NCBI RefSeq assembly: GCF_001677475.2
Contig: NZ_CP012497.1
Direction: 5' to 3' (one strand)
DNA: 64,000 nucleotides
Source of the DNA: Escherichia coli
Lineage (GTDB): Bacteria; Pseudomonadota; Gammaproteobacteria; Enterobacterales; Enterobacteriaceae
This document shows positions 6,764-28,180 of this stretch, one piece after another. Made by a program: the position numbers and the translations under genes. The notes beneath the pieces are model-generated. The model did not search any database, had not been told where the DNA came from, and saw only the letters and a list, made by a program, of their open reading frames with translations. The first letter of the stretch is position 1. Each line of letters starts with the position of its first letter.

Positions 6764-6780
6764 AAATTTATTAGAGCAAT
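6764..6780. promoter_or_regulatory. P1 C1 repressor operator, perfect consensus match, with overlapping promoter for the tRNA-tci-ban operon
   Basis: Reverse complement is ATTGCTCTAATAAATTT (17/17 to the C1 operator consensus); just downstream of the dmt stop and upstream of the tRNAs on the minus strand. Confidence 0.7.
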
Positions 6781-6799
6781 ATACCCAAAACGTCATGAG

Positions 6800-9700
6800 C
6801 TACACCTCGAGTGTCCCCTTACAAGACACAGAACGTCTGGCAAAAAGAGGTTCCACTCTGAAGCCACTGTCATGATAAAGCTCTCTGATGTTTGGCGCGC
6901 CACTGTTAGTAATGAGAACCTTTGCACCTCGACGATGAGCATCCGTCAACAGAGACACCAGGCGTTTTTGCTCTTCAAACTTAAAGTCATGACCGGAATA
7001 GTTCGTGAATCCCTCTGTATTTGGAAGCGGTTCATACGGCGGATCGCAAAAGATGACATCTCCTTCTCCGGCAGCTTCAATCACCGCTGCAAAATCACCG
7101 CATACAAACTCAGACCGCCCTTCCGCACCGAGGAAGGCTTCCATCTCCTGTAATGGGAAATACGGAGTTTTATACTTCCCGTAACCGACATTGAACTCAC
7201 CGGCCTGGTTGTAACGCGTCAATCCGTTAAAACAATGTCGGTTCAGGAACAAAAACGCCGCTGCGCGATGTAAATCATCATAGACTTGTTTGTTAAACGC
7301 ATTCCGTACTGCCAGGTATCCTTCCTGTGTGTTGTAGTCCTGGAAGAAACGATGTGCCAGAGTGATAAGTGAATGCGCCTCGCGTTGCAGAGTCTTGTAA
7401 AAGTTAATCAGGTCAGCATTCACATCATTTAGCAGATTTTCCTGGTATCCGGCATTCATGAAGACAGCTCCGCCACCAACGAAAGGTTCAATCAGGCGCT
7501 TCCCTTCTGGCAAATAGCGAAAGATTTGTTCCAGAACACCAAATTTTCCACCAGCCCATTTGAATATGGACCGTTCGAATTCTGCCGCTGGTTTAACTTT
7601 TCGCTCTTTTGTTTCACTTCCTTCTTTCTGCCGACATACGGCCTTAGTAATCCGATCGCCAATCCAGCGCATTACTGGTATTGCCATACTATTGCCGATC
7701 GCTTTGTAACGCGGTCCGTCAGCTGCAAGCATCGCGGCCTCTTCTTCGCTTAAATCTGGATAGTGATTGCGAAGATATGCCAGTTCATCTGAATTAACTT
7801 TTTTACGCTTTTCCGTCGGGATCAACGTATGCCCATCAGGAAAACCTTGCAGCCTTTCACATTCGACAGGGGTAAGACGGCGGACAGCTACTTCTGCGTT
7901 TCTTACTTCATAGCAAACAGCTGTTGGATTTTTAGCCATTAGAGATGGTGAAGTATTCTTAGTTGCAGCATGTTGTGTACCGCTCATACGCTCAGGAAAA
8001 GCCAATGTAACAAGATGCTCATGGCTTTCTTGCTCACGTGCCCGCAATGTACCATGCCCTTCTGACCAAAAACCTGCTCCTGTGCTGCTAAAAACGGCAA
8101 GGTCAGTGGCATCTTTAAAATCTCTTGCCTTTACTGTCGATGCGGTTTCATCGTCAATATATTCCCCAAATGCCGCCATCCTGAAAGCGTTTACGGCTTT
8201 CGTCGATTTCATACCGGGTGGCATGTCAGCGTGTAGGCATGGATTTAGGCTTTCGCCACTGATTGCAGCGCCATTTGCAATAATGGCGGAAGCGATTTCC
8301 TTCTTTTTTCGGCTCGGCGCAATATTCCGGCGCACGCCTTCGAACTCAAAAAGTACCGTTGCGGGATCGAGGTCTGTTCGAGCACTTGCGACAACAAACA
8401 CGCGTCGGCGTCGTTGTGCCACTCCGAAGTATTGGGCATCAAGGATTCTCCAGGCCACCTTTCGCTGCGGTCCATAAATACAACCACACTGCGGCCACTT
8501 TGGAGCATGGCAACCGGTTTTGCCATCCCACCGCCAGAACGCGTTACTTTTTCCTGATTCAGGTCGATCACCTGGTTCAAATGGCGCATCTTCTCCAGCC
8601 AATCCGGCAAGGAAACATCCGAAGGCGTTATCTGCCGATGACAGGACTCCTGGGACATTTTCCCAGACGATAACTGTCGGTTTGAGGAAGGACTCAGACC
8701 GTTTGTCGTCAATTGCATTTGCAAGCTCCACATACTTCAAAGTTAGCGCGCCGCGTTCATCATCAAGCCCACCACGTAAGCCCGCGATACTGAATGCCTG
8801 ACAGTTATGGACCACCGCACCATTGAGGATATAGGAATGATCACCTTCGACTTCTATGTTGTATACAGTATCTAGGCCTACCGATTTAAACTCTTTGACT
8901 GTTCGTAAAAGCATTCCATGAGCCAATCTTGATTTACGTGACAATTTCTGCGGGCAGATTGTTACCTGATAATAATTCCGTTGATTTACCACGCGATCCT
9001 CGATCACTTTTTTGGGCTCAACTTCAATAAAGCTGACCGAAGAAACATAACCACAAGTCTGTGACAACCCCGCAACGCCCCAAGCAAGCGCAGGACTAAC
9101 ACTATTAATTCTAAATCCCGCTTTACCACTTGGTGTCCCATCAGTATCAAGATAGCCTTGTAAAAACACATGACGCAATGGATGCGACATCACCCATGCA
9201 GGGATACGCTTAGCATGGCTTAACTCGCCAAAATGTTCATTAAGCCAATTGGCATAACACGTATCATTCAAGGTTACTTTGATGCTCCCTCGGATTTCGC
9301 TTGCCACGGAAAATATGTTTTCTGGTATGCGGCAATGAAACTTTCTCAATTTCTGGCAATTTATGCCAAAAACAACCGCCTTCTTAGATTTACCTCTCCA
9401 TCTCCTAATATATCCATCGCCAACATAAGCGCCCGCAAGATACATAGCCTGTTCTTCAGACAAGAACCGAGAACAAATATCTGGAGATGCAATATTGAAA
9501 TTAGTTAGAGCGCACCATTGATATCCCGGCATATCACATGCTGCTCGCCATTCCGGTTCAGACAACAACTCTCTCTTAAAATATGTGCCATTTTTCCGGG
9601 TGTTTTGGGCTTTCCACCGAACAGCCAGGAAGGGATGGTCATTGGTTGTTCTTATACCTAAAGGCTGCCCAACGGCATTAAGTAACCCCGTATTAGCTAT

Positions 9701-10056
9701 TTTTGAACCAACTCTTTTTACTTGTTGTAACCGCCCGAGATGACTGACTACGTAATCGCCAGGGCAAACATCTTCTATTGGTTTATAACCATTTTTACAA
9801 AGAACCATATGCCCCGCGGTAAAACATGGTGTTCCCCGACGAGCACGTCAGGGGATTCGATTTCCCCAGCCAAGACTTTTTTGGCAAGTTTTGTCATGTC
9901 GCCAAGGTTGGCGACATGGGGCCAGCGGAGCGCAAGAACGGCAGATGGAAAAGGCTCGATTTCAGCAAACCACGCCGGACGCATACCCAACGGTTCCCAG
10001 GCAATACTCGCGGCTTCAATTCCACTGCAAACAGATCCATAGCACAGCTCTTTCAC
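6800..10056 (-). CDS. dmt: bifunctional DNA methyltransferase (C5-cytosine domain plus Dam-like N6-adenine domain), intein-containing, frame broken near 9834-9837
   Basis: C5-MTase motifs [40 protein letters not shown]; Dam motifs FVGGGAV and DPPY at the C-terminus; GTG start overlaps the hrdC stop; the N-terminal 77 codons are in a different frame, joined across a C-run. Confidence 0.85.
8804..9826 (-). mobile_element. intein with LAGLIDADG homing-endonuclease domain, inserted at the catalytic Cys of the C5-MTase
   Basis: 341-aa insertion starting CFTAGHMVL and ending ILNGAVVHN followed by Cys+1 of CQAFSIAG; LAGLIDADG-like motifs [13 protein letters not shown] and [11 protein letters not shown]. 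Confidence 0.75.
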
Positions 10057-10961
10057 TGCTTAGCCTCTCCGCCAAGGGCATTTACCAGAGCATCAACCAG
10101 GCACGAAATTTCACTGGTCAACAGGAAGAAATCTGCGTCCAGTCGCTGCGCAACATCTTCACTATCAATATCAGAGTTCTGCTCAAGCAATTCATCCGCA
10201 AATTTGACGCTGGTAAGGCTGAAGTTATGGTCCAGTGTAAATTTAATGCGGTTCTGCCAGTCGAGTGCCAACTTAGTGACGAGCTTGCCAGCTTCCAGGT
10301 GTGTGGAAATTTCATCGCTTCCCAAATCCTGCTTTTTCACTCGGGCAATACCGCCATCCTCAAGCACTGCCTTAAGTTCTGCCGCATCCCCCATTTGAAA
10401 TCCCTGTGGAGCACTACCATCACGTACCCAGTCGGTCAGCGTTAATTCAATGGGATTTTCAACACTTAGGGGAACAACAGGAAGAGAACCCAGAGACTTA
10501 CGCATAAGTGCGAGCATATCCTCTGCCTGCCGCGCGCTGGCATTGATATAGATACGTTTAGTTGAACCATCGTAGATCGCCTGGATAACAGAAAACTTTG
10601 AAAAAGCCCGTGGCAGAAGAGAATGCAGAACTTCGTCTTTCAGGGAATCCTTCTCTGTTTTCTTCAGTTTACGCGCTTGTTCTTGCTCAAGTTTTTCAAT
10701 TTTTTCTTGAATAGCTCGCTGGATAACCGGCGGGGGAAGAATTTTTGTTTCGCGCTTTGCTTCAACAAGGATAAAACCATTTCCATGCATAGCGATAACT
10801 TCGGAATTATCACCAAATGGCGATACAAAACCGAACTTGGCCATATCCTGACTACCGCATGGCGTGAAAAGGATCATTTTCTTTTTATCTTCTAAGTCGG
10901 TCAGATCCGCCTCACGAGAAAGTTTATAAATAGTAATGTTTTTCCAGTGCTTAAACATGTT
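10053..10961 (-). CDS. hrdC: RdgC-like recombination-associated protein (P1 hrdC)
   Basis: Colinear similarity to E. coli RdgC ([59 protein letters not shown]); start taken at internal Met MFKHWKNI. Confidence 0.85.
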
Positions 10962-11306
10962 GTAACCCTTGAATATCAACCACAGAAAGCTCGTCTTTGT
11001 AGAAAAAGGCCAAGTTGTGGCACCCCCTCGTTTGAGCGTATGAGCTGGGACCAATTTCGTTCTTCCAGACAAATGGCTTCAAATCCGTACGGCGAAGCAT
11101 AAAAACGCGATTTGTTCCGCTCTGATTCCCAATGAGGCAAAAGCCTTCTTTCACCTTGATAGCCTGCAAGTTGTCGAGTTCACCGCTGGTTACACGGCTA
11201 TCGAACTCCTTGCGGCTTATTAGCTCCATCTGCATCTGACGACTCCAAACAAATGCCCATTGAAGGGCGATGGCTGAATGGTACCGAAAATACTACATAA
11301 AAAACA

Positions 11307-11323
11307 ATATTCATTAGAGCAAT
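11307..11323. promoter_or_regulatory. C1 operator-like site upstream of hrdC-dmt
   Basis: Reverse complement ATTGCTCTAATGAATAT, partial match to the C1 consensus, in an AT-rich intergenic region. Confidence 0.4.
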
Positions 11324-11403
11324 TATGCAATAGTGAACGCTATGTAGACCACAAGTAACATAGGTTAAAATAACGAAAACCAGAGCAAATAATTGGTGAT
11401 TAC

Positions 11404-11688
11404 GTGGCAAGTATTGCAACAAAAGACAGCATTTGTTCGGGGCACGGAGGATTCCCATCCAGGCCTCCTGTAGAGAGTGAACCACTACTTAAAGTCAACG
11501 GAGTCGAAGTGTTAGTTGATGGTAAGCAATATGCACAGCATACCGATGGAAACAGTACGCACGGTGGGCAAGCTATATCAACCAGGGCATGGTTTACCGT
11601 CAATGGTAAAGGGATCGTATGCGTTGGTGACCCTGTTTCATGCGGCTCTACCGTAGCGTCAGGTGACGGCCTGGTTCAGGTAAGTTAG
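11404..11688 (+). CDS. PAAR-like small protein
   Basis: GTG start; Gly/Cys pattern KVNGVEVLVDGK and TVNGKGIVCVGDPVSCGSTVASGDGLVQV resembles PAAR repeats. Confidence 0.45.
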   Translation: MASIATKDSICSGHGGFPSRPPVESEPLLKVNGVEVLVDGKQYAQHTDGNSTHGGQAISTRAWFTVNGKGIVCVGDPVSCGSTVASGDGLVQVS

Positions 11689-11696
11689 GAGATATC

Positions 11697-12484
11697 ATGC
11701 TGGAAAAAGACTACCAATTATCCGCATATAAAAAATTGGCCGCAGCCGGTGGGATGAAAACACCAGGTGCCATAACATCGGCACGAAGCAGTGCTAACAC
11801 GGCAAAACAGCTTGCAGAAGAATTGACCGGATTAATTTTGGATACAATTGTCTATCCTGACACTATTACCAGCTATGTTTCAACGATCAGAACAACCACA
11901 ACCGGCTTAACGAACATTGGAGAACTGGCAACTAAGCACGCGGACCTGTTGGCTGGTTATGCAGATCTGTCAATGCTGCTTCAACTCGATATTGGTTGGG
12001 ATGTTTACTGCCGTGCTAATGAGCGAGAAGTTTCAGAACTGCCAATCTCTATTGCCATTGGTGATGTGACTATTACTAAATCGCTTGAGGACGCTGTAAA
12101 CGCGCTTAATACATCAAGTTTAGTCGCTGCTATGGGGAGATTAACCAGACCCTTAACACTGGCTCTGAAAGCTCGTCAGGCACTGGTTCAGGCGGCGGCA
12201 CTGCCATTCCCCCACCAGCACTAACAGAAAAGCAAATTGAAGCTCTGAAAGTAGCAACTGAACAGTTTGGGGGAGTTTTCAACCAAACAACAGCGCCCAC
12301 TGTTGCATTGCAACAGCAGTATGAACGGGCGAAGGAAAGCGCCAGCATAGCCATAACTGCTTATGGCCATGCTATTGGTACCGCGCTTGCGGAAGCATCA
12401 GCAAATAAGACCAGCACAGCCAGCGCAGTCGCCGCTTTGGTTCCTGATTCTGTTCTTGATGAATTAAACAAAGCGGCACAGTAA
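11697..12484 (+). CDS. hypothetical protein, frame broken at a G-run
   Basis: 175-aa ORF 11697-12224 continues in another frame to 12484 (GSGGGTAIPPPALTEKQIEALKVATEQ) if the G4 run at 12134-12137 is G5. Confidence 0.4.
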
Positions 12485-14979: not shown

Positions 14980-15087
14980 AATAGCCTCATCGCCATTTCT
15001 TTACGTGCAATAATTGACGCACGAATCAAAAAAAGTTGCACGTAGCAGAATCAAACGTACAATTCACTCATACGAAATGATAAGGAG

Positions 15088-16299
15088 ATGATGATGAAAC
15101 GCGATTACGGCGGTGTTGGCACCATAGCTCTTCGTGCAAGCGCATTACTTAAGGCCATGAGTCAGGATATTGAAGATCAGCGCAAAGAGTTCAATCAGAC
15201 CGAGTATTATCAGACGTTCACTCGTAACGCTGTGGCAAAGTTGCCGAAGCTGAGCCGCCGCATTGTGGAGCAGGCCATCAAAGAGATGGAAGATGATGGG
15301 TACCAGTTCAACAAGAAACAGGTCGGTAACGTTGAACAGTACGCGCTGACCATCCAGAACGTCATTGATATCTATGCCCACCGTAAGATCCCCAAATATC
15401 GCGACATTCACAAATCGCCTTACGTTATTTTTGTCGTAAACCTGAAGGGTGGCGTATCCAAAACGGTTTCCACAGTTACGTTGGCGCACGCTCTGCGTGT
15501 GCATCAGGATTTACTGCGTCACGATCTGCGCATTCTGGTAATTGACCTTGACCCTCAGGCATCCAGCACAATGTTCCTCGACCATACTCACAGTATTGGT
15601 TCCATCCTGGAAACCGCCGCGCAGGCGATGCTGAACGACCTGGACGCGGAGACGCTACGCAAAGAGGTGATTCGTCCGACCATCGTTCCTGGCGTAGACG
15701 TGATTCCAGCCTCTATCGACGATGGCTTTGTTGCCAGCCAATGGAAAGAGCTGGTTGAAGAGCATCTTCCCGGACAAAATCAGTACGAAATCCTTCGACG
15801 CAATATCATTGATCGTGTTGCGGATGATTATGACTTTATCTTTATTGATACCGGTCCACACCTGGATCCGTTCCTGCTCAACGGTCTGGCGGCCAGCGAT
15901 TTGCTGCTTACCCCTACCCCACCAGCCCAGGTTGACTTCCACTCAACACTGAAATATCTCACCCGTCTGCCAGAAATGCTGGAGCAACTGGAGGAGGAAG
16001 GCGTAGAACCGCGTTTGAGCGCCAGCATTGGTTTTATGTCGAAGATGACCGGCAAGCGCGATCACGAGACATCACACAGCCTTGCGCGTGAGGTTTACGC
16101 CAGCAACATTCTGGACTCTTCTCTGCCTCGTCTGGATGGCTTTGAGCGATGCGGCGAGTCTTTCGACACCGTAATCAGTGCCAACCCGCAATCGTATCCA
16201 GGCAGTGCAGAGGCGCTGAAGAAGGCACGAACCGAGGCCGAGCGTTTCACTAAGGCTGTGTTTGATCGAATTGAGTTTGTTAGGGGTGAGGCGGCATGA
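15088..16299 (+). CDS. parA: plasmid partition ATPase ParA (P1 type)
   Basis: Deviant Walker A NLKGGVSKTVSTVTLAHA and long N-terminal DNA-binding extension; colinear with P1 ParA as recalled. Confidence 0.9.
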   Translation: MMMKRDYGGVGTIALRASALLKAMSQDIEDQRKEFNQTEYYQTFTRNAVAKLPKLSRRIVEQAIKEMEDDGYQFNKKQVGNVEQYALTIQNVIDIYAHRKIPKYRDIHKSPYVIFVVNLKGGVSKTVSTVTLAHALRVHQDLLRHDLRILVIDLDPQASSTMFLDHTHSIGSILETAAQAMLNDLDAETLRKEVIRPTIVPGVDVIPASIDDGFVASQWKELVEEHLPGQNQYEILRRNIIDRVADDYDFIFIDTGPHLDPFLLNGLAASDLLLTPTPPAQVDFHSTLKYLTRLPEMLEQLEEEGVEPRLSASIGFMSKMTGKRDHETSHSLAREVYASNILDSSLPRLDGFERCGESFDTVISANPQSYPGSAEALKKARTEAERFTKAVFDRIEFVRGEAA

Positions 16300-17261
16300 A
16301 AAAAATAGTTTCCCGTGGACGAGTGCTGGGCAAGAATAGCTCCGAGTTTGCTCGCATGCTTGAAGGCAGTGAAGGCACCAAAACCTTTACCCTAAAATCT
16401 GGCCGCCAGGCTAAATTTTTGCTTACCGTTGTGCTGAGTGGTGAGATTGAGTCGCGCACGTTCGTTGACCCGGCAGTTAACGGCCGCGATCAGTCTCTGC
16501 TCACCCCTGAGTCGGTAAGCGATATTTCCCGCACCATTAAATTGCAACAGTTCTTCCCGGCTATCGGTCGTATGGTTGGGGAGCGCATTGAGGTATTGGA
16601 CGGATCACGTCGCCGCGCTGCGTGTATCTTCAATGAAACGAAATTTGAGATTCTGGTGACGAAAGATGAGATCAGCCTGGCAGATGCCCGCCAGCTGGCC
16701 ATTGATATCCAGACAGCCCGCGAACACACTCTGCGCGAGCTGGGTAAACGCTTCGAGGTTATGTACGGTAAGAATATGACCAAAGAAGAGATCGCCCGAG
16801 CTGAGAACATCTCAAAGGCTAAAGTGACGCGAGCTTTCCAGGCTGCCGCGGTGCCGGATGAGATGATTGCTGTCTTCCCTGTTGCCAGCGATCTCGCCCT
16901 GCCAGATTACCAGTTACTGCTCCAGATCGCCGAGGATGCTAACGCTAAAAGCGTGCCGATTGAAGAGCTGGTTGATACGGTGCGCGAACGAATTGCAGAG
17001 ACTGAGGGCGCGAAAGAGGATAAATCGAAGATACTGGCTATCTTCAAAGCGGAAAGCAAAAGCCTGAAGCCCGCGCCGGTTAAATCTGTGGTGATTGAGA
17101 AGCTGCGAGACTTCTCTGACCGTCGTCAATACGCCAGAAAGAAGTCCGATCCGAAAAAACGGGTAGTCGCCTACGAGTTCTCCAGACTCCCGTCTGAAGT
17201 GCAAACTGAAATTGACGAAGCAATAAAAAAAATCATTGGGAAAATGTCTGCTGGGGAATAA
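16296..17261 (+). CDS. parB: plasmid partition protein ParB (P1 type)
   Basis: Start overlaps the parA stop; ParB/Spo0J-like core (LDGSRRRAA, HTH region); colinear with P1 ParB as recalled. Confidence 0.9.
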   Translation: MKKIVSRGRVLGKNSSEFARMLEGSEGTKTFTLKSGRQAKFLLTVVLSGEIESRTFVDPAVNGRDQSLLTPESVSDISRTIKLQQFFPAIGRMVGERIEVLDGSRRRAACIFNETKFEILVTKDEISLADARQLAIDIQTAREHTLRELGKRFEVMYGKNMTKEEIARAENISKAKVTRAFQAAAVPDEMIAVFPVASDLALPDYQLLLQIAEDANAKSVPIEELVDTVRERIAETEGAKEDKSKILAIFKAESKSLKPAPVKSVVIEKLRDFSDRRQYARKKSDPKKRVVAYEFSRLPSEVQTEIDEAIKKIIGKMSAGE

Positions 17262-17304
17262 TCCCGCTGGTGGGAGGTGGTTTTAGCCTCCTCCCCTGCC
17301 TAAA

Positions 17305-17410
17305 ATGTCCTGCGCCAATTTCATTGATAACATTATGATTTAAATATATTTTTTAGAAAAATTTCAGACTGAAATTCCCACGATTTAACGCCTGCTTTCA
17401 CCGTCCACTT
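17305..17410. promoter_or_regulatory. candidate parS centromere
   Basis: Downstream of parB: boxB-like GCGCCA next to boxA-like ATTTCAT, an AT-rich possible IHF region, then TTTCACC. Confidence 0.4.
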
Positions 17411-19293: not shown

Positions 19294-20883
19294 ATGTCTC
19301 AATATTCAATTCAACAGTCATTAGGTAATGCATCCGGCGTCGCGGTTAGCCCGATCAATGCAGATGCGACGTTATCTACCGGTGTTGCATTAAATAGCAG
19401 CTTGTGGGCTGGTATTGGCGTATTTGCGCGTGGCAAGCCGTTTACTGTTCTTGCGGTTACTGAGTCCAATTACGAAGATGTTCTCGGCGAACCGCTGAAG
19501 CCGTCTTCCGGCTCACAGTTCGAACCAATTCGCCATGTATACGAAGCTATTCAGCAAACGTCTGGTTATGTTGTCCGTGCTGTTCCGGATGATGCGAAGT
19601 TCCCGGTTATTATGTTCGATGAATCAGGCGAACCGGCTTACAGTGCGTTGCCATACGGTTCTGAAATTGAACTTGATAGCGGCGAAGCCTTTGCTATCTA
19701 CGTTGATGATGGTGATCCGTGTATTTCACCTACCCGTGAGTTAACCATCGAAACGGCAACAGCGGACAGCGCAGGTAATGAACGCTTCCTCCTGAAACTG
19801 ACCCAGACGACTTCGCTCGGCGTGGTAACGACCCTGGAGACACACACTGTGTCTTTGGCGGAAGAAGCGAAAGATGACATGGGCCGCTTGTGTTATCTGC
19901 CTACGGCTCTGGAAGCCCGTTCTAAATATCTGCGCGCGGTTGTTAATGAAGAGCTGATTTCGACGGCGAAAGTAACAAATAAAAAATCGTTGGCGTTCAC
20001 TGGTGGTACCAACGGTGATCAGTCGAAAATCTCAACCGCTGCGTACCTGCGTGCGGTGAAAGTGCTGAACAATGCGCCGTACATGTACACCGCTGTTCTT
20101 GGCCTGGGCTGCTATGACAATGCGGCTATCACCGCATTAGGTAAAATCTGTGCAGATCGCCTGATTGATGGCTTCTTTGATGTCAAACCGACATTAACGT
20201 ACGCAGAAGCACTACCAGCTGTTGAGGATACCGGTTTACTTGGTACCGATTATGTAAGCTGTTCTGTCTATCACTTCCCGTTCTCCTGCAAAGACAAATG
20301 GACCCAATCCCGTGTGGTCTTCGGTCTGTCTGGCGCGGCGTATGCGGCGAAAGCTCGTGGCGTTAAGAAAAACTCCGATGTCGGCGGTTGGCATTACTCA
20401 CCGGCTGGTGAAGAACGTGCCGTCATTGCTCGTGCATCACTTCAGCCGCTGTATCCTGAAGACACCCCGGACGAAGAAGCTATGGTCAAGGGCCGACTCA
20501 ATAAAGTATCTGTAGGTACTTCGGGCCAGATGATCATCGATGATGCTTTAACTTGTTGCACGCAGGACAACTATCTGCATTTCCAGCACGTACCATCCCT
20601 GATGAACGCAATCAGCCGTTTCTTTGTCCAGTTAGCCCGACAGATGAAGCATAACCCGGACGGCATTACTGAGTCTGGACTGACTAAAGGGATGACCAAA
20701 CTTTTAGATCGCTTTGTCGCCTCCGGCGCTCTGGTGGCTCCTCGTGATCCTGATGCTGACGGTACAGAACCGTATGTGCTGAAAGTTACGCAGGCGGAAT
20801 TCGATAAATGGGAAGTAGTCTGGGCCTGCTGCCCGACTGGCGTAGCCCGTCGTATCCAGGGCGTACCGCTGCTTATTAAGTAA
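19294..20883 (+). CDS. tail sheath-like protein (position of P1 gene 22)
   Basis: 529-aa ORF next to the capsid-like gene; size and position match the P1 sheath gene; no motif verification. Confidence 0.5.
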   Translation: MSQYSIQQSLGNASGVAVSPINADATLSTGVALNSSLWAGIGVFARGKPFTVLAVTESNYEDVLGEPLKPSSGSQFEPIRHVYEAIQQTSGYVVRAVPDDAKFPVIMFDESGEPAYSALPYGSEIELDSGEAFAIYVDDGDPCISPTRELTIETATADSAGNERFLLKLTQTTSLGVVTTLETHTVSLAEEAKDDMGRLCYLPTALEARSKYLRAVVNEELISTAKVTNKKSLAFTGGTNGDQSKISTAAYLRAVKVLNNAPYMYTAVLGLGCYDNAAITALGKICADRLIDGFFDVKPTLTYAEALPAVEDTGLLGTDYVSCSVYHFPFSCKDKWTQSRVVFGLSGAAYAAKARGVKKNSDVGGWHYSPAGEERAVIARASLQPLYPEDTPDEEAMVKGRLNKVSVGTSGQMIIDDALTCCTQDNYLHFQHVPSLMNAISRFFVQLARQMKHNPDGITESGLTKGMTKLLDRFVASGALVAPRDPDADGTEPYVLKVTQAEFDKWEVVWACCPTGVARRIQGVPLLIK

Positions 20884-20892
20884 GGGAATACA

Positions 20893-21708
20893 ATGAGCAA
20901 AAACTTTTTTCAATCCGGGGCATTTTTGGGGAATGGACTGTCCCGTTTCGCTTTGAACTCTGATCCTGTGCAGCTGATGGAGTCTGCCCGAGCAAGCGCC
21001 GAACCGCTAACAGATCCTGTTATTAATAATAATCCGGAACCGGCGGCACAGACTAACGATAACGTTCCATCTGACCCGGCTCCTGAGCAAATTCTGGAAG
21101 GGAAAGACGGTAAAGAATGGACCGTCGAACAGGCGCACCAGATGATTCTGGAAGCTGCAAATCGAAGTGCTATGCAGAATGCGTTGAGTGATGCGGCCGA
21201 CGCCGTTTTCGCCTGGGCTGATAGCGGTGATCTGACTTTCGACTCCCTTGATGGTTTCGTTCAAGCTATCGCTGGTATCTCTGACGACGACGACTCCGAA
21301 GTTACAGAAGAACAGGACGATGCCTATAACGAAGCATGGGCAAATGTTGCTGACTTCCTCGCAGCATGCGGTGTAGATGATGACCTGATCGAAGCACTGG
21401 CTGACGATGAGGACGACGACGCAGCTGCTGATGTTGGTGCCTCTATCGCTGGTTTAGATAGCGACGACCGCGACGAACTGGAAGCGGCGTTTGTTGTTGC
21501 TGGCACTTCTGATGAAATGCTGACTGAAGCATTTAAGAAGGTTGTTCGTAACGGTGAGATCAAACTCATCCGTAAACGCCTGCGTAAAAAACGTCTGACT
21601 GCGGCTCAAAAATCGGCGCTGAAAAAAGCTCGTCGAAAAGCCCAGACCGGCGCGGCAAAACTTGCCCGCAAAAAGTCAATGAAACTGCGCCGTAAGCGCC
21701 TTGGCTAA
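20893..21708 (+). CDS. acidic virion-associated protein with basic C-terminal tail
   Basis: 271-aa ORF, Asp/Glu-rich core and Lys/Arg-rich C-terminus (KRLRKKRLTAAQKSALKKARRKAQ). Confidence 0.35.
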   Translation: MSKNFFQSGAFLGNGLSRFALNSDPVQLMESARASAEPLTDPVINNNPEPAAQTNDNVPSDPAPEQILEGKDGKEWTVEQAHQMILEAANRSAMQNALSDAADAVFAWADSGDLTFDSLDGFVQAIAGISDDDDSEVTEEQDDAYNEAWANVADFLAACGVDDDLIEALADDEDDDAAADVGASIAGLDSDDRDELEAAFVVAGTSDEMLTEAFKKVVRNGEIKLIRKRLRKKRLTAAQKSALKKARRKAQTGAAKLARKKSMKLRRKRLG

Positions 21709-21743
21709 AGGAGGAGGCCGGAGAACTCCGGCCTTTAACTTGA

Positions 21744-22325
21744 ATGGCTCCTATAGCTTATGGGGTTTACAGCCAGGCTGACGGTGTATCGCCATATCTG
21801 AAAGTTACTTTAACGAACTCTCAGTACCAGGTTACCGGATATATCAGCCAGGGAGCGGCAATGAACATGGCCCAGAATTGGGAAGCGCCGTTTACCGGTA
21901 TGTCCATGGGATCTGTTTCTGGTGCTCTGGGTGGTTTTGTGCAAGTAGGTACTGAAACAACGTCGGTTGCCCGTTGGAATAGCTTAATGGTTTGGGAAGG
22001 GGGGACTCCGCCGACGTTCACGCTGCCTGTAACTTTCATTGCTTTGAACAATCCATTCATTGAAGTTTCAGGCGCTATCGCCGCGTTGACAGCCATGATT
22101 AGCCCGGAACTAAAAGCGGCCAATGTTGGTGGTCGAATCCCGGAGCGCGTGACGCTAAACATTGGTCGCCGGATCAACATCACCGATGTCGCCATCCAGG
22201 ACTTAAGTTTTGATCTCGATGCGCCAAGGGACAGTAATGGATATTTCCTGAAAAACACCGTCAACCTCCAGTTGACCGGTTCTTCGATATATAACAGCTC
22301 CGATATTGTTCGGGCGTTCCAGTAA
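21744..22325 (+). CDS. hypothetical tail protein
   Basis: 193-aa ORF in the late structural operon, followed closely by the next gene. Confidence 0.35.
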   Translation: MAPIAYGVYSQADGVSPYLKVTLTNSQYQVTGYISQGAAMNMAQNWEAPFTGMSMGSVSGALGGFVQVGTETTSVARWNSLMVWEGGTPPTFTLPVTFIALNNPFIEVSGAIAALTAMISPELKAANVGGRIPERVTLNIGRRINITDVAIQDLSFDLDAPRDSNGYFLKNTVNLQLTGSSIYNSSDIVRAFQ

Positions 22326-22336
22326 AAGGATTTTAT

Positions 22337-22846
22337 ATGGGGCACAATAACACTAAGGGAAACCGTAAATTTATTAAGGGCCGCTATACTGCCAACGCGG
22401 CCAAAGGCGAACGACTGGTATCTTCTGAATTCCAGCTCACTTTTGCAGGCCATGAAGATATCAGCGTACTGGTTCGCACGTCGCAAATCCCTGAAATGAC
22501 CCGCGAGGATGTGGAGGACTATGGCCCGAATGGTGTGAAGTTCAACCAGCACGGTCCAATCCGTAACTCCGGGGAAATCCAGGTCCAGTGCGTGGAGACT
22601 ATCGAAGGCGATATTCTTCAGTTCATTAAAGATCGCATTGCGGCGAAGGACTATGTTGATATCACGATGGCTGCGACCCCTGAATCCAAATCTTCCGGGG
22701 TTAACGCCGTGACAAAAGCTGCTACAACAATTGAAATGTTGGACTGCAAAATCTACAGTGATGCAATCGACTTTAGTACCGAAGATGTGAATGCTGCTGT
22801 GCGCCCGTCACTTCGTATCGTCTACAACTGGATTGAGTGGGATTAA
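22337..22846 (+). CDS. hypothetical tail protein (possibly tube-like)
   Basis: 169-aa ORF, last gene of the structural operon, followed by a terminator. Confidence 0.35.
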   Translation: MGHNNTKGNRKFIKGRYTANAAKGERLVSSEFQLTFAGHEDISVLVRTSQIPEMTREDVEDYGPNGVKFNQHGPIRNSGEIQVQCVETIEGDILQFIKDRIAAKDYVDITMAATPESKSSGVNAVTKAATTIEMLDCKIYSDAIDFSTEDVNAAVRPSLRIVYNWIEWD

Positions 22847-22865
22847 AAGTCATCCCTTGTATTTT

Positions 22866-22890
22866 AAAGCTCCTACGGGAGCTTTTTTGT
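22866..22890 (+). terminator. intrinsic terminator
   Basis: AGCTCC-TACG-GGAGCT hairpin followed by TTTTTT. Confidence 0.6.
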
Positions 22891-22929
22891 GCTTAAATTA
22901 TGCCGGTATAGATAGATTTTGAGCATGTT

Positions 22930-23226
22930 ATGGAAATTGATTTTTCATACTCTCCTGAGACGATAGAAAGAAGATTCGAAATAATTGGATGCATAACTAT
23001 TTCAGATGAGCATTATTGGATTCTCTATGATGCCAATACATGGTTATGTGCCTTAGCAGAATGTCAGGCATCGTTATGTGTAGGGGAGGGGGCTTTTCGA
23101 CATAAGGTGCTGGCTACACTTGAAGTGAACACGTTACGATATTGGTGTGTAGAAATACTTAGTGATAACAAAGAATTGCATTTATTATTGCTGAATAAGT
23201 GTGCTTCTCTGCGCAGAAAAGCATGA
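22930..23226 (+). CDS. hypothetical small protein (accessory island)
   Basis: 98-aa ORF in a low-GC island with no recognisable motif. Confidence 0.3.
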   Translation: MEIDFSYSPETIERRFEIIGCITISDEHYWILYDANTWLCALAECQASLCVGEGAFRHKVLATLEVNTLRYWCVEILSDNKELHLLLLNKCASLRRKA

Positions 23227-23391
23227 GAAAACCCAACCGCTCTCCCGTAATTATCAGAAGAATATGTGCGGAAAGTTATAGCTAGCTATTGAAAAGCTAA
23301 AGTAGATCGGTTAGATTTGCCTTACTCATCTACCATGTGTAGAAAGAGCGATCGAACCCGATACATAGTAATATGTGTCGGGTTCAGCTTT

Positions 23392-23856
23392 TTATGTCCC
23401 AAGTGCTCTTTTTCTGCTTTGTTTGAGTGTTCTGATTTTACTGTCATAGGTTACAACATAGGCTGTTTTGAGAAGCCAATAGTCTCTACGTGCGGATAGC
23501 ACAACAACGTAGTTTTCATACTCATTCCAGATTACCCACTCTTCAGTTGGTCCTCGTCTTTCAGACCAACATGATATATCGCAATGGTTATAATTCCTTA
23601 TCATATGCGCGATCCAGCGAATTCGTTTGCACCGTTCAAGATCGGGTATACGTTCTTCTTCTATTTTTCCCTCTGATACTAAATGCCAAAATCCGAACTC
23701 TTTCCCATCATATTCCGGTGAATAACGTAATCGAACAGGGAGACCCTTAAACGTTATATTAGAGATTAAAATATCTTCTCTGACAACATCATATACATCG
23801 TCTATATACTCTTGCCAACTTCCATTGAAGTACAATAAATCTGGCATTTGAAGCAT
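23392..23856 (-). CDS. hypothetical protein, downstream partner of the DUF3800-like gene (possible Rx5H HEPN-like motif)
   Basis: About 154 aa starting MLQMPDLLYF; ATG overlaps the upstream stop (TGATG); contains RIRWIAHMIRNYNH; low GC. Confidence 0.4.
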   Translation of the reverse strand: MLQMPDLLYFNGSWQEYIDDVYDVVREDILISNITFKGLPVRLRYSPEYDGKEFGFWHLVSEGKIEEERIPDLERCKRIRWIAHMIRNYNHCDISCWSERRGPTEEWVIWNEYENYVVVLSARRDYWLLKTAYVVTYDSKIRTLKQSRKRALGT

Positions 23857-24560
23857 CAGCGAGCCTCCCACACGAAAATATTAAATTTACTTTCTGTTGG
23901 AAGAGTGCTTTTTAGTAACTCCCTGTTTGTATGTGATTTTATCCTGTTTATGACTTGGATTTTTCCCGCGTTGCTATTCATTCCTCGATGAACGTAGCCT
24001 AACGCACCAATGAAAAGATCCGTTAGCTGCAATTGTTGCACTTCATGAGATCGTATATGTTGAATTCTGTTTATCGACTCATGATTGTAATCATAGCGAT
24101 CATTGTGAAGAACCCCTCTTAATTTCTCAATTTTTTCAATACCTAAAGTATCTTTTATATCTAGGTAGATATTGTATGTGTTGTTACTTTCTATTATGTT
24201 TTTTAAGACATAAAAAAACATCTTATAATAGAAAGTATTATGATCTTGATGGAATCGAGCATGGTCCAGTTGCTCTTTATCAGGAACAACAACACCTCTA
24301 AAGCGCAATGCTGGGTTGCTGAAGAAGTAATCTACGACATCTAAGTAAAATTCAACTTTGGACGCAGATACTTTAGTCCACTTGATTTCGAAATCAGGTT
24401 TTAGATTGTGTTTTAATTTTAATTCCTTGATGTCTCTAGCAATTTTTTTTGTGATAGTGCCTGGACACCAAAGCGCACCCAATACCATGACTTTATTATG
24501 ATCATTTAGTAGGTGACAGGATTCATCGCAGAATACATTAAATGTTCTTCGGTTCAACAT
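23856..24560 (-). CDS. DUF3800-like protein (candidate defence/accessory effector)
   Basis: 234-aa ORF with N-terminus NVFCDESCHL, similar to the xIDESG start recalled for DUF3800 proteins; low GC; sits where P1 rlfA/rlfB would be, downstream of repL. Confidence 0.45.
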   Translation of the reverse strand: MLNRRTFNVFCDESCHLLNDHNKVMVLGALWCPGTITKKIARDIKELKLKHNLKPDFEIKWTKVSASKVEFYLDVVDYFFSNPALRFRGVVVPDKEQLDHARFHQDHNTFYYKMFFYVLKNIIESNNTYNIYLDIKDTLGIEKIEKLRGVLHNDRYDYNHESINRIQHIRSHEVQQLQLTDLFIGALGYVHRGMNSNAGKIQVINRIKSHTNRELLKSTLPTESKFNIFVWEAR

Positions 24561-24710
24561 GTTAACTCCACTTATTGTTAGGTAGAATTGTCCGTTAGTT
24601 GTTTATTAATTGCAATAATGGGACGTCCAGTTTTGGCAACTGTGTCCTCTTACCAAGACGCCTATGAGTTTGCCTCATGGCAAACTAGAAGTGTTGAAAG
24701 TATGTATAGT

Positions 24711-24725
24711 TCTAATTAGAGCAAT
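24711..24725. promoter_or_regulatory. C1 operator-like site between repL and the DUF3800-like operon
   Basis: Reverse complement ATTGCTCTAATTAGA, partial match to the C1 consensus. Confidence 0.35.
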
Positions 24726-24728
24726 TCA

Positions 24729-25574
24729 TTAACCTCTGAATCCTGCCGGTATACCCCATTGTTCGTTATCTTTATTTTTGGCTAAAACCTCATTAAGAGC
24801 TTCGTTTACCGTCATGCAATGCGGCAGATTATCGAAGTTTGATATCCCGCCAATATCAGGAGAACGCTTGTTCTTCAGGTAAGCATATTTCCGCGCTGCC
24901 GCCTCTACTTTCTGCTTGAACTCATGTTTTTGAGCGCGTTTTTTGGATAACCGCAGATTGTCAGCCTTTGCTTTTGCCTCAGCGATCCATGAAGTCAGTT
25001 TTTTGAGGCTGGTCGTTCCGGTACCGCCGGAAACTGATCTTTTTGTTTTTTTAATTTGTGACTTCTTATTCTTTATTGCCACGTCATCCTGACAGGGGGA
25101 GGGGGTATCATTTTGACATGGGGGTGTGGATAAAAAATCAAATAAAGCCAATGTGTTAGCGAGAACAGCTTTAACCTTGGTTGCGGCTGAAGAGATCTTT
25201 AATTTGCTTTCAATTAGCGCATTTTTGGCTTGTTGAGCAAAGGCTAAAAAGGATGGTGTAAACCGGTACAGGTTAGCGCGGCGTTCACGGTGATCGCCGA
25301 TAACAATCTCTACCGACAGGATTCCTTTGTTTACAGCTTCACGGAATGCACGAACGACGGTTGATTGGCTATAACCAGTTTCTGCCGCGATCAGGCGGTG
25401 AGGCTTGTGAATGAAGTATTCACTGGTTGTTGCCGCGAGATTTGCACATTGCGACAGGATATGCCCGGCGCTACGGGATAGACCGGAGTGTGTTACAAAG
25501 CAGGCCAATTCATAGCCAGAAAAAGTAAAATCGCTCATCGTTATACAGCTCAGGAAAGTGACTTTAGCCAGCAT
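24729..25574 (-). CDS. repL: lytic replication protein RepL-like
   Basis: 281-aa ORF immediately downstream of kilA as in P1; HTH-like segment GYSQSTVVRAFREAVNKG. Confidence 0.55.
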   Translation of the reverse strand: MLAKVTFLSCITMSDFTFSGYELACFVTHSGLSRSAGHILSQCANLAATTSEYFIHKPHRLIAAETGYSQSTVVRAFREAVNKGILSVEIVIGDHRERRANLYRFTPSFLAFAQQAKNALIESKLKISSAATKVKAVLANTLALFDFLSTPPCQNDTPSPCQDDVAIKNKKSQIKKTKRSVSGGTGTTSLKKLTSWIAEAKAKADNLRLSKKRAQKHEFKQKVEAAARKYAYLKNKRSPDIGGISNFDNLPHCMTVNEALNEVLAKNKDNEQWGIPAGFRG

Positions 25575-25603
25575 TACAATGCTGGTGGTTCTTACTACGT
25601 CTG

Positions 25604-26404
25604 TTAGCGCGTTGCCGCGACAGGTACCAGCACACCAGCATCAAGCAATCGCTTCATCAGCCACTGCTGACCTTTGCCGGTTATACGAGTCGTGAAAGAA
25701 ATCCTGCTTCCATTGCTTGTATCGATCACGGTTTCTTTAAGGGTGAAATACCCATGGGATATGTATTCTTGTTTGGGGACGTTCCTGCGTTCACCGGTTG
25801 CGATCAGAATTCCGTTATCACGCAACCAGGTGAAGAGATAGTTTTGGCCCAGGCCGAGCACTTTGGCATAGTTGCCGATTAGAACCCCGCTGGCGGTAGC
25901 AACGCGTTCGGCGAATTCGACTTTAGGTGCATCCATAAGCATTTTTTGCTCCAGCCGTTGCTTTTGCTCTGCCAGGTCGGCAGCCAAACGGAGAGCTTCA
26001 GGGAGACTCTGCGGAATAGCAGGTTGTAATCTTCCGGCTCGATAGTCGATAAATGTCTGGTTTACCTTCAGCCGAAACGCGGGAGAAATCCAGCCTGCGT
26101 ACTCCACAGCGAGCAATTCATGGGCAAACGTGCCGCCGCCACGGCCTTCGAACGAAACTATGCAATTCTGCATAGTTTCTTTTTCAAGCTCTTCGATGAG
26201 CTGTTTGGCTGACAGCGTTCTTAGCCATTGAGCTGGCGCTTTATGGGCACCGAGTCCGCTCGCTCTGTGTAGAGCATTAAGGTTGTAACGGCCAGCGCGG
26301 TCGGTCGTAATTTCAACACCACAAATAACGGGCAGAGTGGTTGAAGGATCGACATTTTGATGAAGGTTTGATATATTCATATCCGCATTGAATGTTTGTT
26401 GCAT
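25604..26404 (-). CDS. kilA: KilA (KilA-N domain plus antirepressor-type C-terminal domain)
   Basis: 266-aa ORF; KilA-N-like N-terminus (VICGVEITTDRAGRYNLNALHRASG); C-terminal domain paralogous to the Ant C-terminus. Confidence 0.8.
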   Translation of the reverse strand: MQQTFNADMNISNLHQNVDPSTTLPVICGVEITTDRAGRYNLNALHRASGLGAHKAPAQWLRTLSAKQLIEELEKETMQNCIVSFEGRGGGTFAHELLAVEYAGWISPAFRLKVNQTFIDYRAGRLQPAIPQSLPEALRLAADLAEQKQRLEQKMLMDAPKVEFAERVATASGVLIGNYAKVLGLGQNYLFTWLRDNGILIATGERRNVPKQEYISHGYFTLKETVIDTSNGSRISFTTRITGKGQQWLMKRLLDAGVLVPVAATR

Positions 26405-26473
26405 TTTTTCTCCAAATTTGCATCAACCTTCAATCACCAGCTCGAAATGGTGATTATTTGCACTTATAAAACG

Positions 26474-26490
26474 AAATTTATTAGAGCAAA
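26474..26490. promoter_or_regulatory. C1 operator (P1 Op53-like) upstream of kilA-repL
   Basis: Reverse complement TTTGCTCTAATAAATTT (16/17 to consensus), about 70 nt upstream of the kilA start. Confidence 0.65.
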
Positions 26491-26568
26491 TTTTTCTAAC
26501 TCGATCCAGATCGGGTTGGACGATCTGCTCAGAAACCTGCCAGTTTGCTGGCAGGTTTTTTTCTTTTA

Positions 26569-27612
26569 TTAACCTATTGCTACTGGTTTTAACAAACCAG
26601 CATCAAGTAGCTTGCGAGTTAACCACTGCTGGCCTTTACCCGTTAATTGGGGCGTCAGCCGTATCTGGTAGCCATTTTCATCATCCAGCACCACTTCTTT
26701 CACCGTGAAATACCCGGCATTAATGTATTGCTGGCGCGGTACGTTTTTGCGCTCACCAAAAGCCATGAGAATGCCGCTCTGGCGCAACCATGAGAAAAGG
26801 GCGTTTTGCTTAAGTCCAACGACCTTTGCAAAGTTCCCGATCAGGATTCCATTGGCCACTGATACCCGGTCGGCAAAATCGACTTTAGGGGCTGCGGCCA
26901 CCAGCTGTTGTTCCAACTGCATTTTCTGTTCTGCCAACTCGGCAGCCAGGCGTAGAGCTTCTGGTAATGTTTGGGGGATCGATGGGGCAGGGGAGTTTGC
27001 CTGCTGCAATTCTTCCAGTTTGTCGATCAGCGAACGGCGGACCGCTTTTGACTCGCGCGCGGCAACTCGCAGGGCTTGTTTGTAGGTCATGGTTATGACA
27101 ACCATAGGCGTACCGCCACCTGGCGGCACGGTTGCACTTTTTGTGTAACCGTCCTCACCTTCTAATTCGTCGAGTATTTTTTCGATGAATTTATTGTTTC
27201 TAACCAATGGTTCTCCACATAACTTGCGTGCCTCATTGACCATCTTCAACAATGTTTGGCTGTCGATTGTGTCTCCGGTGTTGGGGATGACATTCACGGC
27301 TGGTGCTGGCGTAGCTGAAGCAACAGGTGCTGGTTTTTCAACATTCAAATTATTACCGGTCATTCTATGTGCCTCCTTTCTCATTTCTGCTGCCACTGTT
27401 GCGTAACGTAGACGTCCTTGTTCAATCAAATAATCCCTGATCTCGGCTATCAGTAGCCTGTTGATCACAGCCTTATCTATCCGGGTATAAAAACGCTTGG
27501 TTATCATGAAATAGTTGGCAATTGCGCCGGGGATCTCCCGTGTCGGCATACAGGCAGTATGCAGGGCGATCGCTTCGGCTATTTCATTCCGGGTGACGAG
27601 AGGTTTTTTCAT
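26569..27612 (-). CDS. ant: antirepressor Ant-like protein
   Basis: 347-aa ORF whose C-terminal domain (LPEALRLAAELAEQK..GILIGNFAKVVGL..) is paralogous to the KilA C-terminus; start overlaps the icd stop. Confidence 0.7.
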   Translation of the reverse strand: MKKPLVTRNEIAEAIALHTACMPTREIPGAIANYFMITKRFYTRIDKAVINRLLIAEIRDYLIEQGRLRYATVAAEMRKEAHRMTGNNLNVEKPAPVASATPAPAVNVIPNTGDTIDSQTLLKMVNEARKLCGEPLVRNNKFIEKILDELEGEDGYTKSATVPPGGGTPMVVITMTYKQALRVAARESKAVRRSLIDKLEELQQANSPAPSIPQTLPEALRLAAELAEQKMQLEQQLVAAAPKVDFADRVSVANGILIGNFAKVVGLKQNALFSWLRQSGILMAFGERKNVPRQQYINAGYFTVKEVVLDDENGYQIRLTPQLTGKGQQWLTRKLLDAGLLKPVAIG

Positions 27613-27830
27613 AAACCCCCCTGAACGTCGGCAGAGAAGGGGAGGTTCCAGTAACTAAGTGAATTGCGCGAGTTAGTTGAAAAACGGGCAGTAAAAATGC
27701 AGGGGCCATCAGGCAATTGAGAGCGTGCTTCGTCTTCTGTTGCTGCGATAACGAAGTGATAGTGGTGTTTTTGGCAGGAGTAAAAGCGCCAGATAAATTC
27801 AGGATGAGTAGGGGTAGGGATAGTAGCCAC
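27609..27830 (-). CDS. icd: Icd-like small protein
   Basis: 73-aa ORF overlapping the ant start (ATGA), same size and position as P1 icd. Confidence 0.5.
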   Translation of the reverse strand: MATIPTPTHPEFIWRFYSCQKHHYHFVIAATEDEARSQLPDGPCIFTARFSTNSRNSLSYWNLPFSADVQGGL

Positions 27831-28163
27831 AATGGCAGCCTCCTTTTGCTAATTTAAGGAGCTACCGCGTGAGGTTCCAATCTCAATGGCGGTAGCACTG
27901 ACTGGGTTGGAACTACCGGCGCAAAAGGGAACCGGCCTGCCTTTCGGCAGCCCAGCCAGCACTACCATTGATCTCGGAGCTATGTGCTACGTATGGCTGT
28001 GCGATGGCATGACACAAAAAAAGACGCTTTTGGCGTCTGTGTCGCCTTTTGCATTATCCGGGGTTCCAATCCCGGCATCCATTTTACTAAGATGCCTGTT
28101 TAGGATAAACCGAAAATGCATTAGCACGCAAGCAAGTTAATGTAGCATATGAAGCTAAAAAAA

Positions 28164-28180
28164 TAAAATAATTAGAGCAA
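28164..28180. promoter_or_regulatory. C1 operator-like site (P1 Op51-like) upstream of the icd-ant leader
   Basis: Reverse complement contains TTGCTCTAATTATT, partial consensus match in an AT-rich region. Confidence 0.4.

Follow-up and report, generated by a model that had tools for sequence, protein, structure and literature searches.

The C1 repressor of phage P1 recognizes asymmetric sites of 17 bp overlapping sigma-70 promoters, and in the lysogen its binding shuts off early lytic functions. The operator consensus and a count of about 22 operators have been published (PMC8546580). In P1, the genes rlfA and rlfB, named as "replication-linked", are dispensable for plaque formation (PMC10695390), and their transcripts are reported to change together with repL during P1vir infection (bioRxiv 10.64898/2025.12.28.696737). 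With pmgF, they form a variable region of P1-like phage-plasmids (PMC9603915; PMC6906374). DUF3800 genes, to which rlfA belongs, have been associated with 11 RNA motifs (PMC5737381). PADLOC lists a two-gene "phage defence candidate", PDC-M04, that corresponds to this pair; PDC systems are candidates only, their proposal having relied solely on "guilt by embedding" within loci for BREX, DISARM or type I RM (bioRxiv 10.1101/2024.01.29.577857). Here, we describe the C1 operators in a 64,000-nucleotide stretch of Escherichia coli DNA (the window), which can be securely classed as a P1-type phage-plasmid with the standard C1 regulon, and consider how repressor control may reach rlfA and rlfB.

The phage-plasmid and its C1 operators

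The P1-like phage-plasmid occupies the left half of the window (1-30723) in reversed orientation relative to the P1 reference, and this region aligns with P1 75253-46293 at 97-99% identity. At 30724, pmgC is interrupted by the insertion of a Mu-like prophage; with this prophage in pmgC, full phage function of the element may be doubtful. Because c1 (P1 93.2-94.1 kb) falls past the left end of the window, a repressor encoded by this element is presumed; C1 of the closest plasmid relative is identical to P1 C1 at 282 of 283 residues. The operator half-sites, together with one chance match to the consensus, are as follows.

6753-6769, plus strand: Op72b (Obanb), ATTACACTAATAAATTT, 15/17 consensus positions
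6764-6780, minus strand: Op72a (Obana), ATTGCTCTAATAAATTT, 17/17; forms, with Op72b, the bivalent operator of the ban (tRNA-tci-ban) operon
11307-11323, minus strand: Op68 (Odmt), ATTGCTCTAATGAATAT, 15/17; upstream of uhr-hrdC-dmt
24709-24725, minus strand: Op55 (Orlf; in P7, Op(rap)), ATTGCTCTAATTAGAAC, 12/17; 11-base core perfect, 3' half non-consensus
26474-26490, minus strand: Op53 (OrepL), TTTGCTCTAATAAATTT, 16/17; operator of P53 (PkilA), the promoter of the kilA-repL lytic replicon
28165-28181, minus strand: Op51 (Oc4), GTTGCTCTAATTATTTT, 14/17; precedes the c4-icd-ant (immI) leader
35775-35791, plus strand: chance match, 14/17, in unrelated Mu-like DNA

All six half-sites coincide, as confirmed by alignment, with protein_bind features labeled "phage repressor C1" in the P1 RefSeq record (NC_005856), and the three around repL are annotated in the P7 record too. 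Judged from sequence and position, the six half-sites are very probably the C1 operators of a P1-type prophage-plasmid, copies of Op72ab, Op68, Op55, Op53 and Op51. An earlier, sequence-only reading of this DNA had proposed a set of C1 operators, and each site that it listed falls at an operator annotated in P1; the names Op72, Op53 and Op51 that it gave likewise match the annotated positions. It placed Op51 one base off, at 28164-28180, and missed Op72b, the second half of Op72ab. The sites that it reported at 11307 and 24711-24725 are real but were already known as Op68/Odmt and Op55/Orlf, the full 17-mer of the latter being the one listed above.

Op72a is identical to P1 68667-68683, which is annotated Obana and overlaps P1ban/P2ban. 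Op72b is inverted relative to Op72a and overlaps it by 6 bp, the whole bivalent Op72ab extending over 6753-6780; its counterpart, P1 68678-68694, is annotated Obanb and lies in a region identical between window and P1. Op68 is orthologous, with one substitution, to P1 65145-65161, which adjoins the -35 of Pdmt, and Op53 has the same sequence as P1 49810-49826, where the operator overlaps the -10 of PkilA. For Op72ab, Op68 and Op53, overlap with or adjacency to a promoter is thus given by near-identity to annotated P1 promoter regions, operator and promoter together being identical or nearly so. Op51 overlaps a promoter-like site (TTTACA-17-AATTAT, 28196-28168), and C4 RNA lies downstream at 27885-27972.

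A search of the window with the consensus ATTGCTCTAATAAATTT, allowing up to three mismatches, returned 6 sites against 0.17 expected by chance. The exact 11-base core ATTGCTCTAAT occurs three times (0.03 expected), and the 8-mer GCTCTAAT occurs five times, confined to the operator sites; every copy is on the minus strand, and none lies in the Mu-like half. We also scored the sites with a matrix built from 13 P1 operators outside the region covered by the window and compared the scores with 300 shuffles. None of the shuffles reached Op72a (28.0 bits), Op68 (24.2 bits) or Op72b (24.1 bits), whereas the score of Op53 (21.4 bits) was reached in 3 and that of Op51 (18.0 bits) in 20. These five are strong half-sites with classic geometry, set apart from background by an independent matrix. 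The sequence-only reading had suggested a matrix scan for its partial sites, and the result divides them: Op68 stands clear of the shuffles, but Op55 scores 11.8 bits, is equaled or bettered in 258 of 300, and ranks eighth, under the chance site in Mu-like DNA (12.2 bits). Its full-length matrix scores range from 11.8 to 13.4 bits with ranks of 6 to 8, which is the background level, although an exact 11-base core like the one it carries is expected only 0.03 times per window.

Two matches, at 35775-35791 and 2587-2603, were rejected as operators since both are at background level and the former lies in Mu-like DNA. A role of C1 operators as general module boundaries was also rejected; the other breakpoints between P1 and the window (8803/9824, 14981/17358 and 27803/30387) lie away from operators.

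Overall, the operator set is real but ordinary. In a lysogen, C1 would shut off the ban helicase operon, the uhr-hrdC-dmt methylase operon, kilA-repL and one c4-icd-ant promoter. The discovery value is small; among the modest gains is the placing of the window as a P1-type phage-plasmid with the standard C1 regulon.

rlfA-rlfB and the kilA-repL replicon

Four genes, all on one strand, frame the question of how rlfA and rlfB are controlled.

23392-23871, minus strand: rlfB, partner gene overlapping the end of rlfA
23856-24560, minus strand: rlfA, DUF3800 protein of 234 aa
24729-25574, minus strand: repL, lytic replicon, directly upstream of rlfAB
25604-26404, minus strand: kilA, lytic replicon (24729-26404 in all), expressed from the Op53-controlled promoter

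The sequence-only reading had described a DUF3800-like operon as an accessory operon; it is P1 rlfA-rlfB itself, not an additional cassette. RlfA is 100% identical to P1 RlfA and matches Pfam DUF3800 (PF12686) with an E-value of 5.2e-14 over model positions 1-148 of 149, and RlfB is identical to P1 RlfB at 152 of 154 residues (99%). The two genes, adjacent on the minus strand and overlapping by 16 nt with the stop codon included, match the A and B profiles of PDC-M04 (PDC-M04A, E 1e-95; PDC-M04B, E 5e-52). In the search for function, neither protein had a match in PDB or NCBIfam, and RlfB had none in Pfam.

No terminator-like site was found on the minus strand of the repL-rlfA interval, and the only strong hairpin follows rlfB. 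Because rlfAB lies downstream of kilA-repL, on the same strand and with no terminator between, rlfA-rlfB would depend on C1 mainly via read-through from the Op53-controlled kilA-repL promoter, and we consider this the more likely source of their C1 dependence; the reported joint change of rlfA/B and repL transcripts in P1vir infection speaks for it. The contribution of Op55 would be at most auxiliary: it might block leaky read-through, or it might be a partner site of low affinity similar to Op99c. A structured RNA in the spacer between repL and rlfA is unsupported: despite a fold z-score of -2.7, none of 42 pairs is compensatory across six haplotypes, and an Rfam search of the spacer returned no structured RNA even at E up to 5.

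The site between repL and rlfA

Op55 is a weak, core-only site that does not adjoin a promoter. It lies 148 nt upstream of the rlfA ATG (165 nt counted from its 5' end), and the predicted -35 of PrlfA in P1 is 94 nt downstream, across a spacer conserved in the window. Op55 therefore neither overlaps nor abuts the promoter that it would control, with the reservation that the promoter prediction is weak and the scan misses known P1 promoters. A sigma-70 scan of the repL-rlfA spacer found no promoter near Op55 on the relevant strand, a result that we set aside, since the scan fails to detect even the known promoters P53 and Pban.

Of the rival readings, the likeliest is that the post-repL site is a remnant with no function, an operator-like core where the conserved repL block borders a cassette-exchange hot spot, which persists only through the close kinship of the sampled elements. 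We regard this as a credible minority reading. Directly after the 11-base core, the rlfAB class (13 loci in addition to P1 and the window) parts from the majority class (59 loci, with ATTGCTCTAATCTGGAG at this site), a third class is without any site, and the neighboring rlfA-rlfB-pmgF genes are the published variable region introduced above. The core is present in 72 of 72 anchored relatives; as proof of function, however, this conservation was rejected as weak, the relatives being very close and the majority class probably derived from one event. With variation at about 15% of spacer positions across the 6 class-A haplotypes, an unchanged 11-mer falls short of significance (by arithmetic, roughly 0.17). 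Nevertheless, an exact 11-mer matching the operator core is hardly a chance product (its chance in the 165-bp spacer is about 8e-5 by arithmetic), and the core remains constant though the adjoining 6 nt, on the 5' side, differ (TGATAG vs TAATGA). The older name Op55 also suggests that the site was recognized before genome annotation; a full-text literature search for "Op55" gave no match, and the older record X15639 is without operator features.

Alternatively, Op55/Orlf could be a bona fide operator that directly represses an rlfA-rlfB promoter in the lysogen. GenBank annotations, like the sequence-only reading, imply this view, which we think rather unlikely. The P1 record annotates the site as a C1-controlled operator, as does that of P7 ("regulates expression of..."), its 11-base core is exact, and positions 1-11 account for 17.8 of the motif's 23.5 bits. 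Like all other sites, it is oriented with its downstream genes; like P1 Op86a, Op88 and Op94, it directly follows the stop codon of the upstream gene; and the core TTGCTC is itself the -35 hexamer in several P1 promoters. Given that P1 sites as degenerate as 12/17 (Oc1c) are annotated as operators and that the core is improbable by chance, a real direct function is possible. Against it stand the background-level matrix score, the distance to the predicted PrlfA -35, and the lack of a convincing -10 at 16-18 nt past the core. Its 3' half also changes among relatives (TATAAC, TAGAAC or CTGGAG), while that of Op51 stays near consensus in all immI types and across divergent backgrounds, and five relatives (lineage L068-L072) retain Op53 and Op51 intact but are missing the Op55 site. 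In related loci with a site found at that position, the Op53 17-mer is unchanged in 61 of 61. By sequence comparison, then, Op53 and Op51 are conserved putative C1 sites around the lytic replicon, and the post-repL site is lineage-specific.

Finally, it is improbable that Op55 is a real low-affinity C1 site acting at a distance, through a roadblock or through looping with Op53 1.75 kb away, to silence rlfA-rlfB in the lysogen and allow them to be switched on with the lytic replicon. If this were true, rlfA-rlfB (a DUF3800, RNase H-like protein and its partner, homologous to PDC-M04) would be a "defence-like" module that serves phage lytic growth rather than the lysogen, and retention of the core alone, bordering the cassette hot spot, would allow varied cargo cassettes to come under the same C1 control.

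Read-through from the Op53-controlled promoter is the reading that we favor. The sequence-only reading had suggested that the DUF3800-like operon may be under repressor control; the annotations as Orlf in P1 and Op(rap) in P7 agree, but the idea is not new and Op55 itself scores at background. Direct operator control of rlfAB is a reading made at the level of annotation, and the evidence for it is thin, a point of some relevance at a time when homologues of rlfAB are catalogued as a candidate defence system.

Comparison with the operators of P1 and P7

The operators of the window, with their names and positions and including the one before rlfA, are already in the public P1 and P7 annotations. 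Op72ab, Op68, Op53 and Op51 share position, strand and neighboring genes with their P1 counterparts; the sequences of Op72ab and Op53 are identical to those of P1, and Op68 differs by one base. Op51 is AATGCTCTAATAAATTT in P1 and GTTGCTCTAATTATTTT in the window, where it stays near consensus although the surrounding immI/sim region is unalignable with P1 and P7; E. coli plasmids and 8 IMG/VR loci carry the window variant as well.

Op55 is orthologous to P1 51575-51591 (ATTGCTCTAATTATAAC), labeled "C1-controlled operator Orlf" in the P1 record, and its P7 counterpart is labeled "Op(rap)". The window site shares with both its position, beginning 3 nt past the repL stop codon and upstream of rlfA (rapA in P7), as well as the 11-base core and the 12/17 match to the consensus. 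It is one base apart from P1 in the degenerate 3' half, which reads TAGAAC in the window and TATAAC in P1. A similar site in P1 is Oc1c (Op99c) of the c1-coi region, which likewise reaches 12/17, matching well in its 5' part and poorly in its 3' half, and overlaps no annotated promoter. Oc1c could serve as a model for an auxiliary role of Op55, whether by looping or otherwise, although such a role is conjecture. Oc1c has four other operators around it in the autoregulated c1 region, whereas Op55 stands alone, 1.75 kb from Op53.

C1 operators in the P1-like region

A search of the whole window with the C1 operator consensus ATTGCTCTAATAAATTT, allowing up to three mismatches, returned six matches against 0.17 expected, and the exact 11-base core occurs three times against 0.03 expected. 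P1 has 20 annotated operators; to avoid circularity, the matrix used to score site strength was built from the 13 of them located outside the P1 interval that the window covers, and background was the number of 300 shuffles that contained an equally good match.

C1 operator sites and consensus matches, with strand, agreement with the consensus, matrix score and shuffles as good
Op72a (Obana): 6764-6780, minus; 17/17; 28.0 bits; 0/300
Op72b (Obanb): 6753-6769, plus; 15/17; 24.1 bits; 0/300
Op68 (Odmt): 11307-11323, minus; 15/17; 24.2 bits; 0/300
Op55 (Orlf), after repL: 24709-24725, minus; ATTGCTCTAATTAGAAC; 12/17 with a perfect 11-base core; 11.8 bits; 258/300
Op53 (OrepL): 26474-26490, minus; 16/17; 21.4 bits; 3/300
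Op51 (Oc4): 28165-28181, minus; 14/17; 18.0 bits; 20/300
Consensus match in non-P1 DNA: 35775-35791, plus; 14/17

The sequence-only reading correctly identified its sites as P1 C1 operators, and its observation is confirmed: 6764-6780, 11307-11323 and 26474-26490 were found where it placed them, Op51 is real but was put one base off, at 28164-28180, and Op72b was absent from its list. Op72, Op53 and Op51 were expected at P1 positions, and exactly the orthologous positions are indeed annotated as "phage repressor C1" binding sites in the P1 RefSeq record. In the P1 annotation, Obana and Obanb (formerly Op72a and b) overlap the ban promoters, Odmt adjoins the -35 of Pdmt, OrepL overlaps the PkilA -10, Oc4 overlaps one c4 promoter at its -35, and Orlf (formerly Op55) is placed between repL and rlfA. 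Aligned with P1, Op72ab and Op53 show no difference, Op68 and Op55 have one changed base each, and Op51 is a different 17-mer in an immI region that is unalignable with P1 or P7. In a lysogen, C1 sits on the strong sites and so keeps the promoters of ban, dmt, kilA-repL and c4 occluded. Only at the five operator positions does the 8-mer GCTCTAAT occur, in each case on the minus strand; the Mu-like half has none. The c1 gene lies outside the window; C1 of the closest plasmid relative is 282/283 identical to that of P1.

Two operator-like sequences, ATTGCTTTAATAAACTC at 35775-35791 (plus), inside the Mu-like prophage, and ATTGCATTAATAATCCT at 2587-2603 (plus), near the ban/dbn junction and without P1 annotation, score at background level (10.7-14.8 bits).

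The site between repL and rlfA

The "DUF3800-like operon" is P1 rlfA-rlfB (RlfA 234/234 and RlfB 152/154 identical). RlfA matches Pfam DUF3800. In PADLOC, RlfA hits PDC-M04 A (1e-95) and RlfB hits PDC-M04 B (5e-52); PDC-M04 is a candidate system put forward on the basis of "guilt by embedding" (bioRxiv 10.1101/2024.01.29.577857). PDB and NCBIfam searches with both proteins gave no match. A published model of the DUF3800 partner protein in type VII retrons is RNase H2-like (PMC7736814), and CRISPRi found rlfA-rlfB dispensable for P1 plaque formation (PMC10695390). RNA motifs are known to associate with DUF3800 genes (PMC5737381); none was detectable near rlfAB by Rfam or by folding with haplotype covariation. 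A predicted hairpin (24564-24589, minus) pairs the rlfA Shine-Dalgarno (GUGGAG) with upstream UUCUACC; all six haplotypes share it unchanged, and covariation therefore gives no evidence either way.

The match reported between repL and this operon exists, but in the matrix scan proposed as its check it is at background, ranking eighth in the window, under a chance match in the Mu-like prophage (12.2 bits). Motif positions 1-11 hold 17.8 of the 23.5 bits of the matrix, and Op55 is only "half" of a good operator. The chance of an exact 11-mer in the 165-bp spacer is ~8e-5, so the sequence is not accidental.

Among 78 RepL-encoding loci from IMG/VR, the sequence after repL falls into three classes, and at least three alternative cassettes occur there in P1-like elements.

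Sequence classes and cassettes downstream of repL
Class A (13 loci, P1 and the window): rlfAB, site ATTGCTCTAATTATAAC
Class B (59 loci): core followed by CTGGAG, then an unrelated cassette of an 83-108-aa membrane protein and a 210-aa protein (phrog_7522) on the opposite strand
Class C (L068-L072, RepL 93% identical): third cassette, ORFs of 171 aa and 83 aa; no operator-like site after repL

Within class A, the window departs from ATTGCTCTAATTATAAC in the 3' half of Op55, where it has TAGAAC. Class C keeps Op53 and Op51 at full strength. Op53 is one and the same 17-mer in all 61 loci with a site found at its position, and Op51, in at least seven variants, stays near consensus in its 3' half (AAATTT, TATTTT, GAATTG) despite unalignable flanks. 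The 3' half is therefore retained under divergence in genuine operators but not in the site after repL. Published work describes the rlfA-rlfB-pmgF segment as a variable region in P1-like phage-plasmids (PMC9603915; PMC6906374). Classes A and B part immediately after the last base of the core. Op55 could be an inert remnant left where cassettes join, which we regard as possible though doubtful. Across six haplotypes the spacer varies at about 15% of its positions, and with relatives this close the invariance of the core carries no significance.

That Op55 directly represses an rlfA promoter, as the existing annotation implies, appears unlikely. Eighteen of the 20 P1 operators overlap or sit within ~20 nt of an annotated promoter hexamer; Oc1c, likewise a 12/17 site, and Orlf do not, the predicted PrlfA -35 being 94 nt downstream of Orlf. 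A promoter scan found nothing at Op55, a silence given no weight because the same scan misses the known P53 and Pban promoters. We consider it most likely that rlfAB is transcribed together with kilA-repL from the Op53-controlled promoter, and would thus be repressor-dependent whether or not Op55 works. No terminator-like element was found on the coding strand between repL and rlfA, a 14-bp hairpin follows rlfB, and rlfA/B are reported to co-vary with repL in P1vir transcriptomes (bioRxiv 10.64898/2025.12.28.696737), which fits shared transcription. Under shared transcription, Op55 would be at most an auxiliary low-affinity site, conjecturally a roadblock or a partner site like Oc1c.

P1 backbone and Mu-like insertion

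P1 and its relatives match at ~97% identity (megablast, window 20000-32000). In the full comparison, 1-30723 follows P1 colinearly in reverse orientation, from 75253 to 46293, apart from three replaced or diverged stretches, and the sequence from 30724 to the window end is non-P1. There, pmgC is interrupted by a Mu-like transposable prophage.

Features of the P1-like part and the Mu-like prophage
8803-9824: replaced or diverged stretch inside dmt; extra ~1 kb segment near the dmt 5' end
14981-17358: replaced or diverged stretch, par region
27803-30387: replaced or diverged stretch, c4/sim region
30723/30724: P1::Mu junction; P1 homology ends at 30723 (P1 46293)
30724-64000: Mu-like prophage
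30826-31672: mom/com
59608-60129: Gam
61651-62601: MuB-like gene
62680-63998: MuA-like transposase, two ORFs (62677-63501 and 63516-63998+)

The extra segment accounts for the length of Dmt (6800-9808, minus; 1002 aa vs 754 aa in P1). The parA/parB region is ~65% identical to P1 or unalignable, and therefore of a different partition/incompatibility type. The immI/sim region, unalignable with both P1 and P7, encodes a C4 RNA (27885-27972) preceded by an isrK-like RNA (28017-28095; Rfam 58.9 bits), and three ORFs of 116, 158 and 355 aa replace the sim genes; this variant also occurs in E. coli plasmids, e.g., NZ_LR130557.1.

The insertion cuts pmgC down to 110 codons. The motif AAGCGCGCA...TTATTCAAGATA is repeated at 30727-30808, just inside the Mu-like end, probably as transposase-binding end repeats. 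The MuA-like ORFs match consecutive parts of one PHROG profile, and the apparently split gene may be a pseudogene or carry a frameshift. In other E. coli chromosomes, the host genes beside this prophage end differ; the P1::Mu junction is absent from RefSeq complete E. coli genomes and PLSDB plasmids.

Comparison with the P1 and P7 regulons

The window holds every P1 operator of the interval it covers and no additional one, so that the finding recovers a regulon already catalogued; its consensus and count of ~22 operators are restated in PMC8546580. The whole finding is already known, including the proposed C1 control of the DUF3800 operon, which is existing annotation in P1 and P7 but depends on the weakest of these sites. 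In P7, the same sites are annotated as Op(c4), Op(rep) and, for the site before rlfA, Op(rap).
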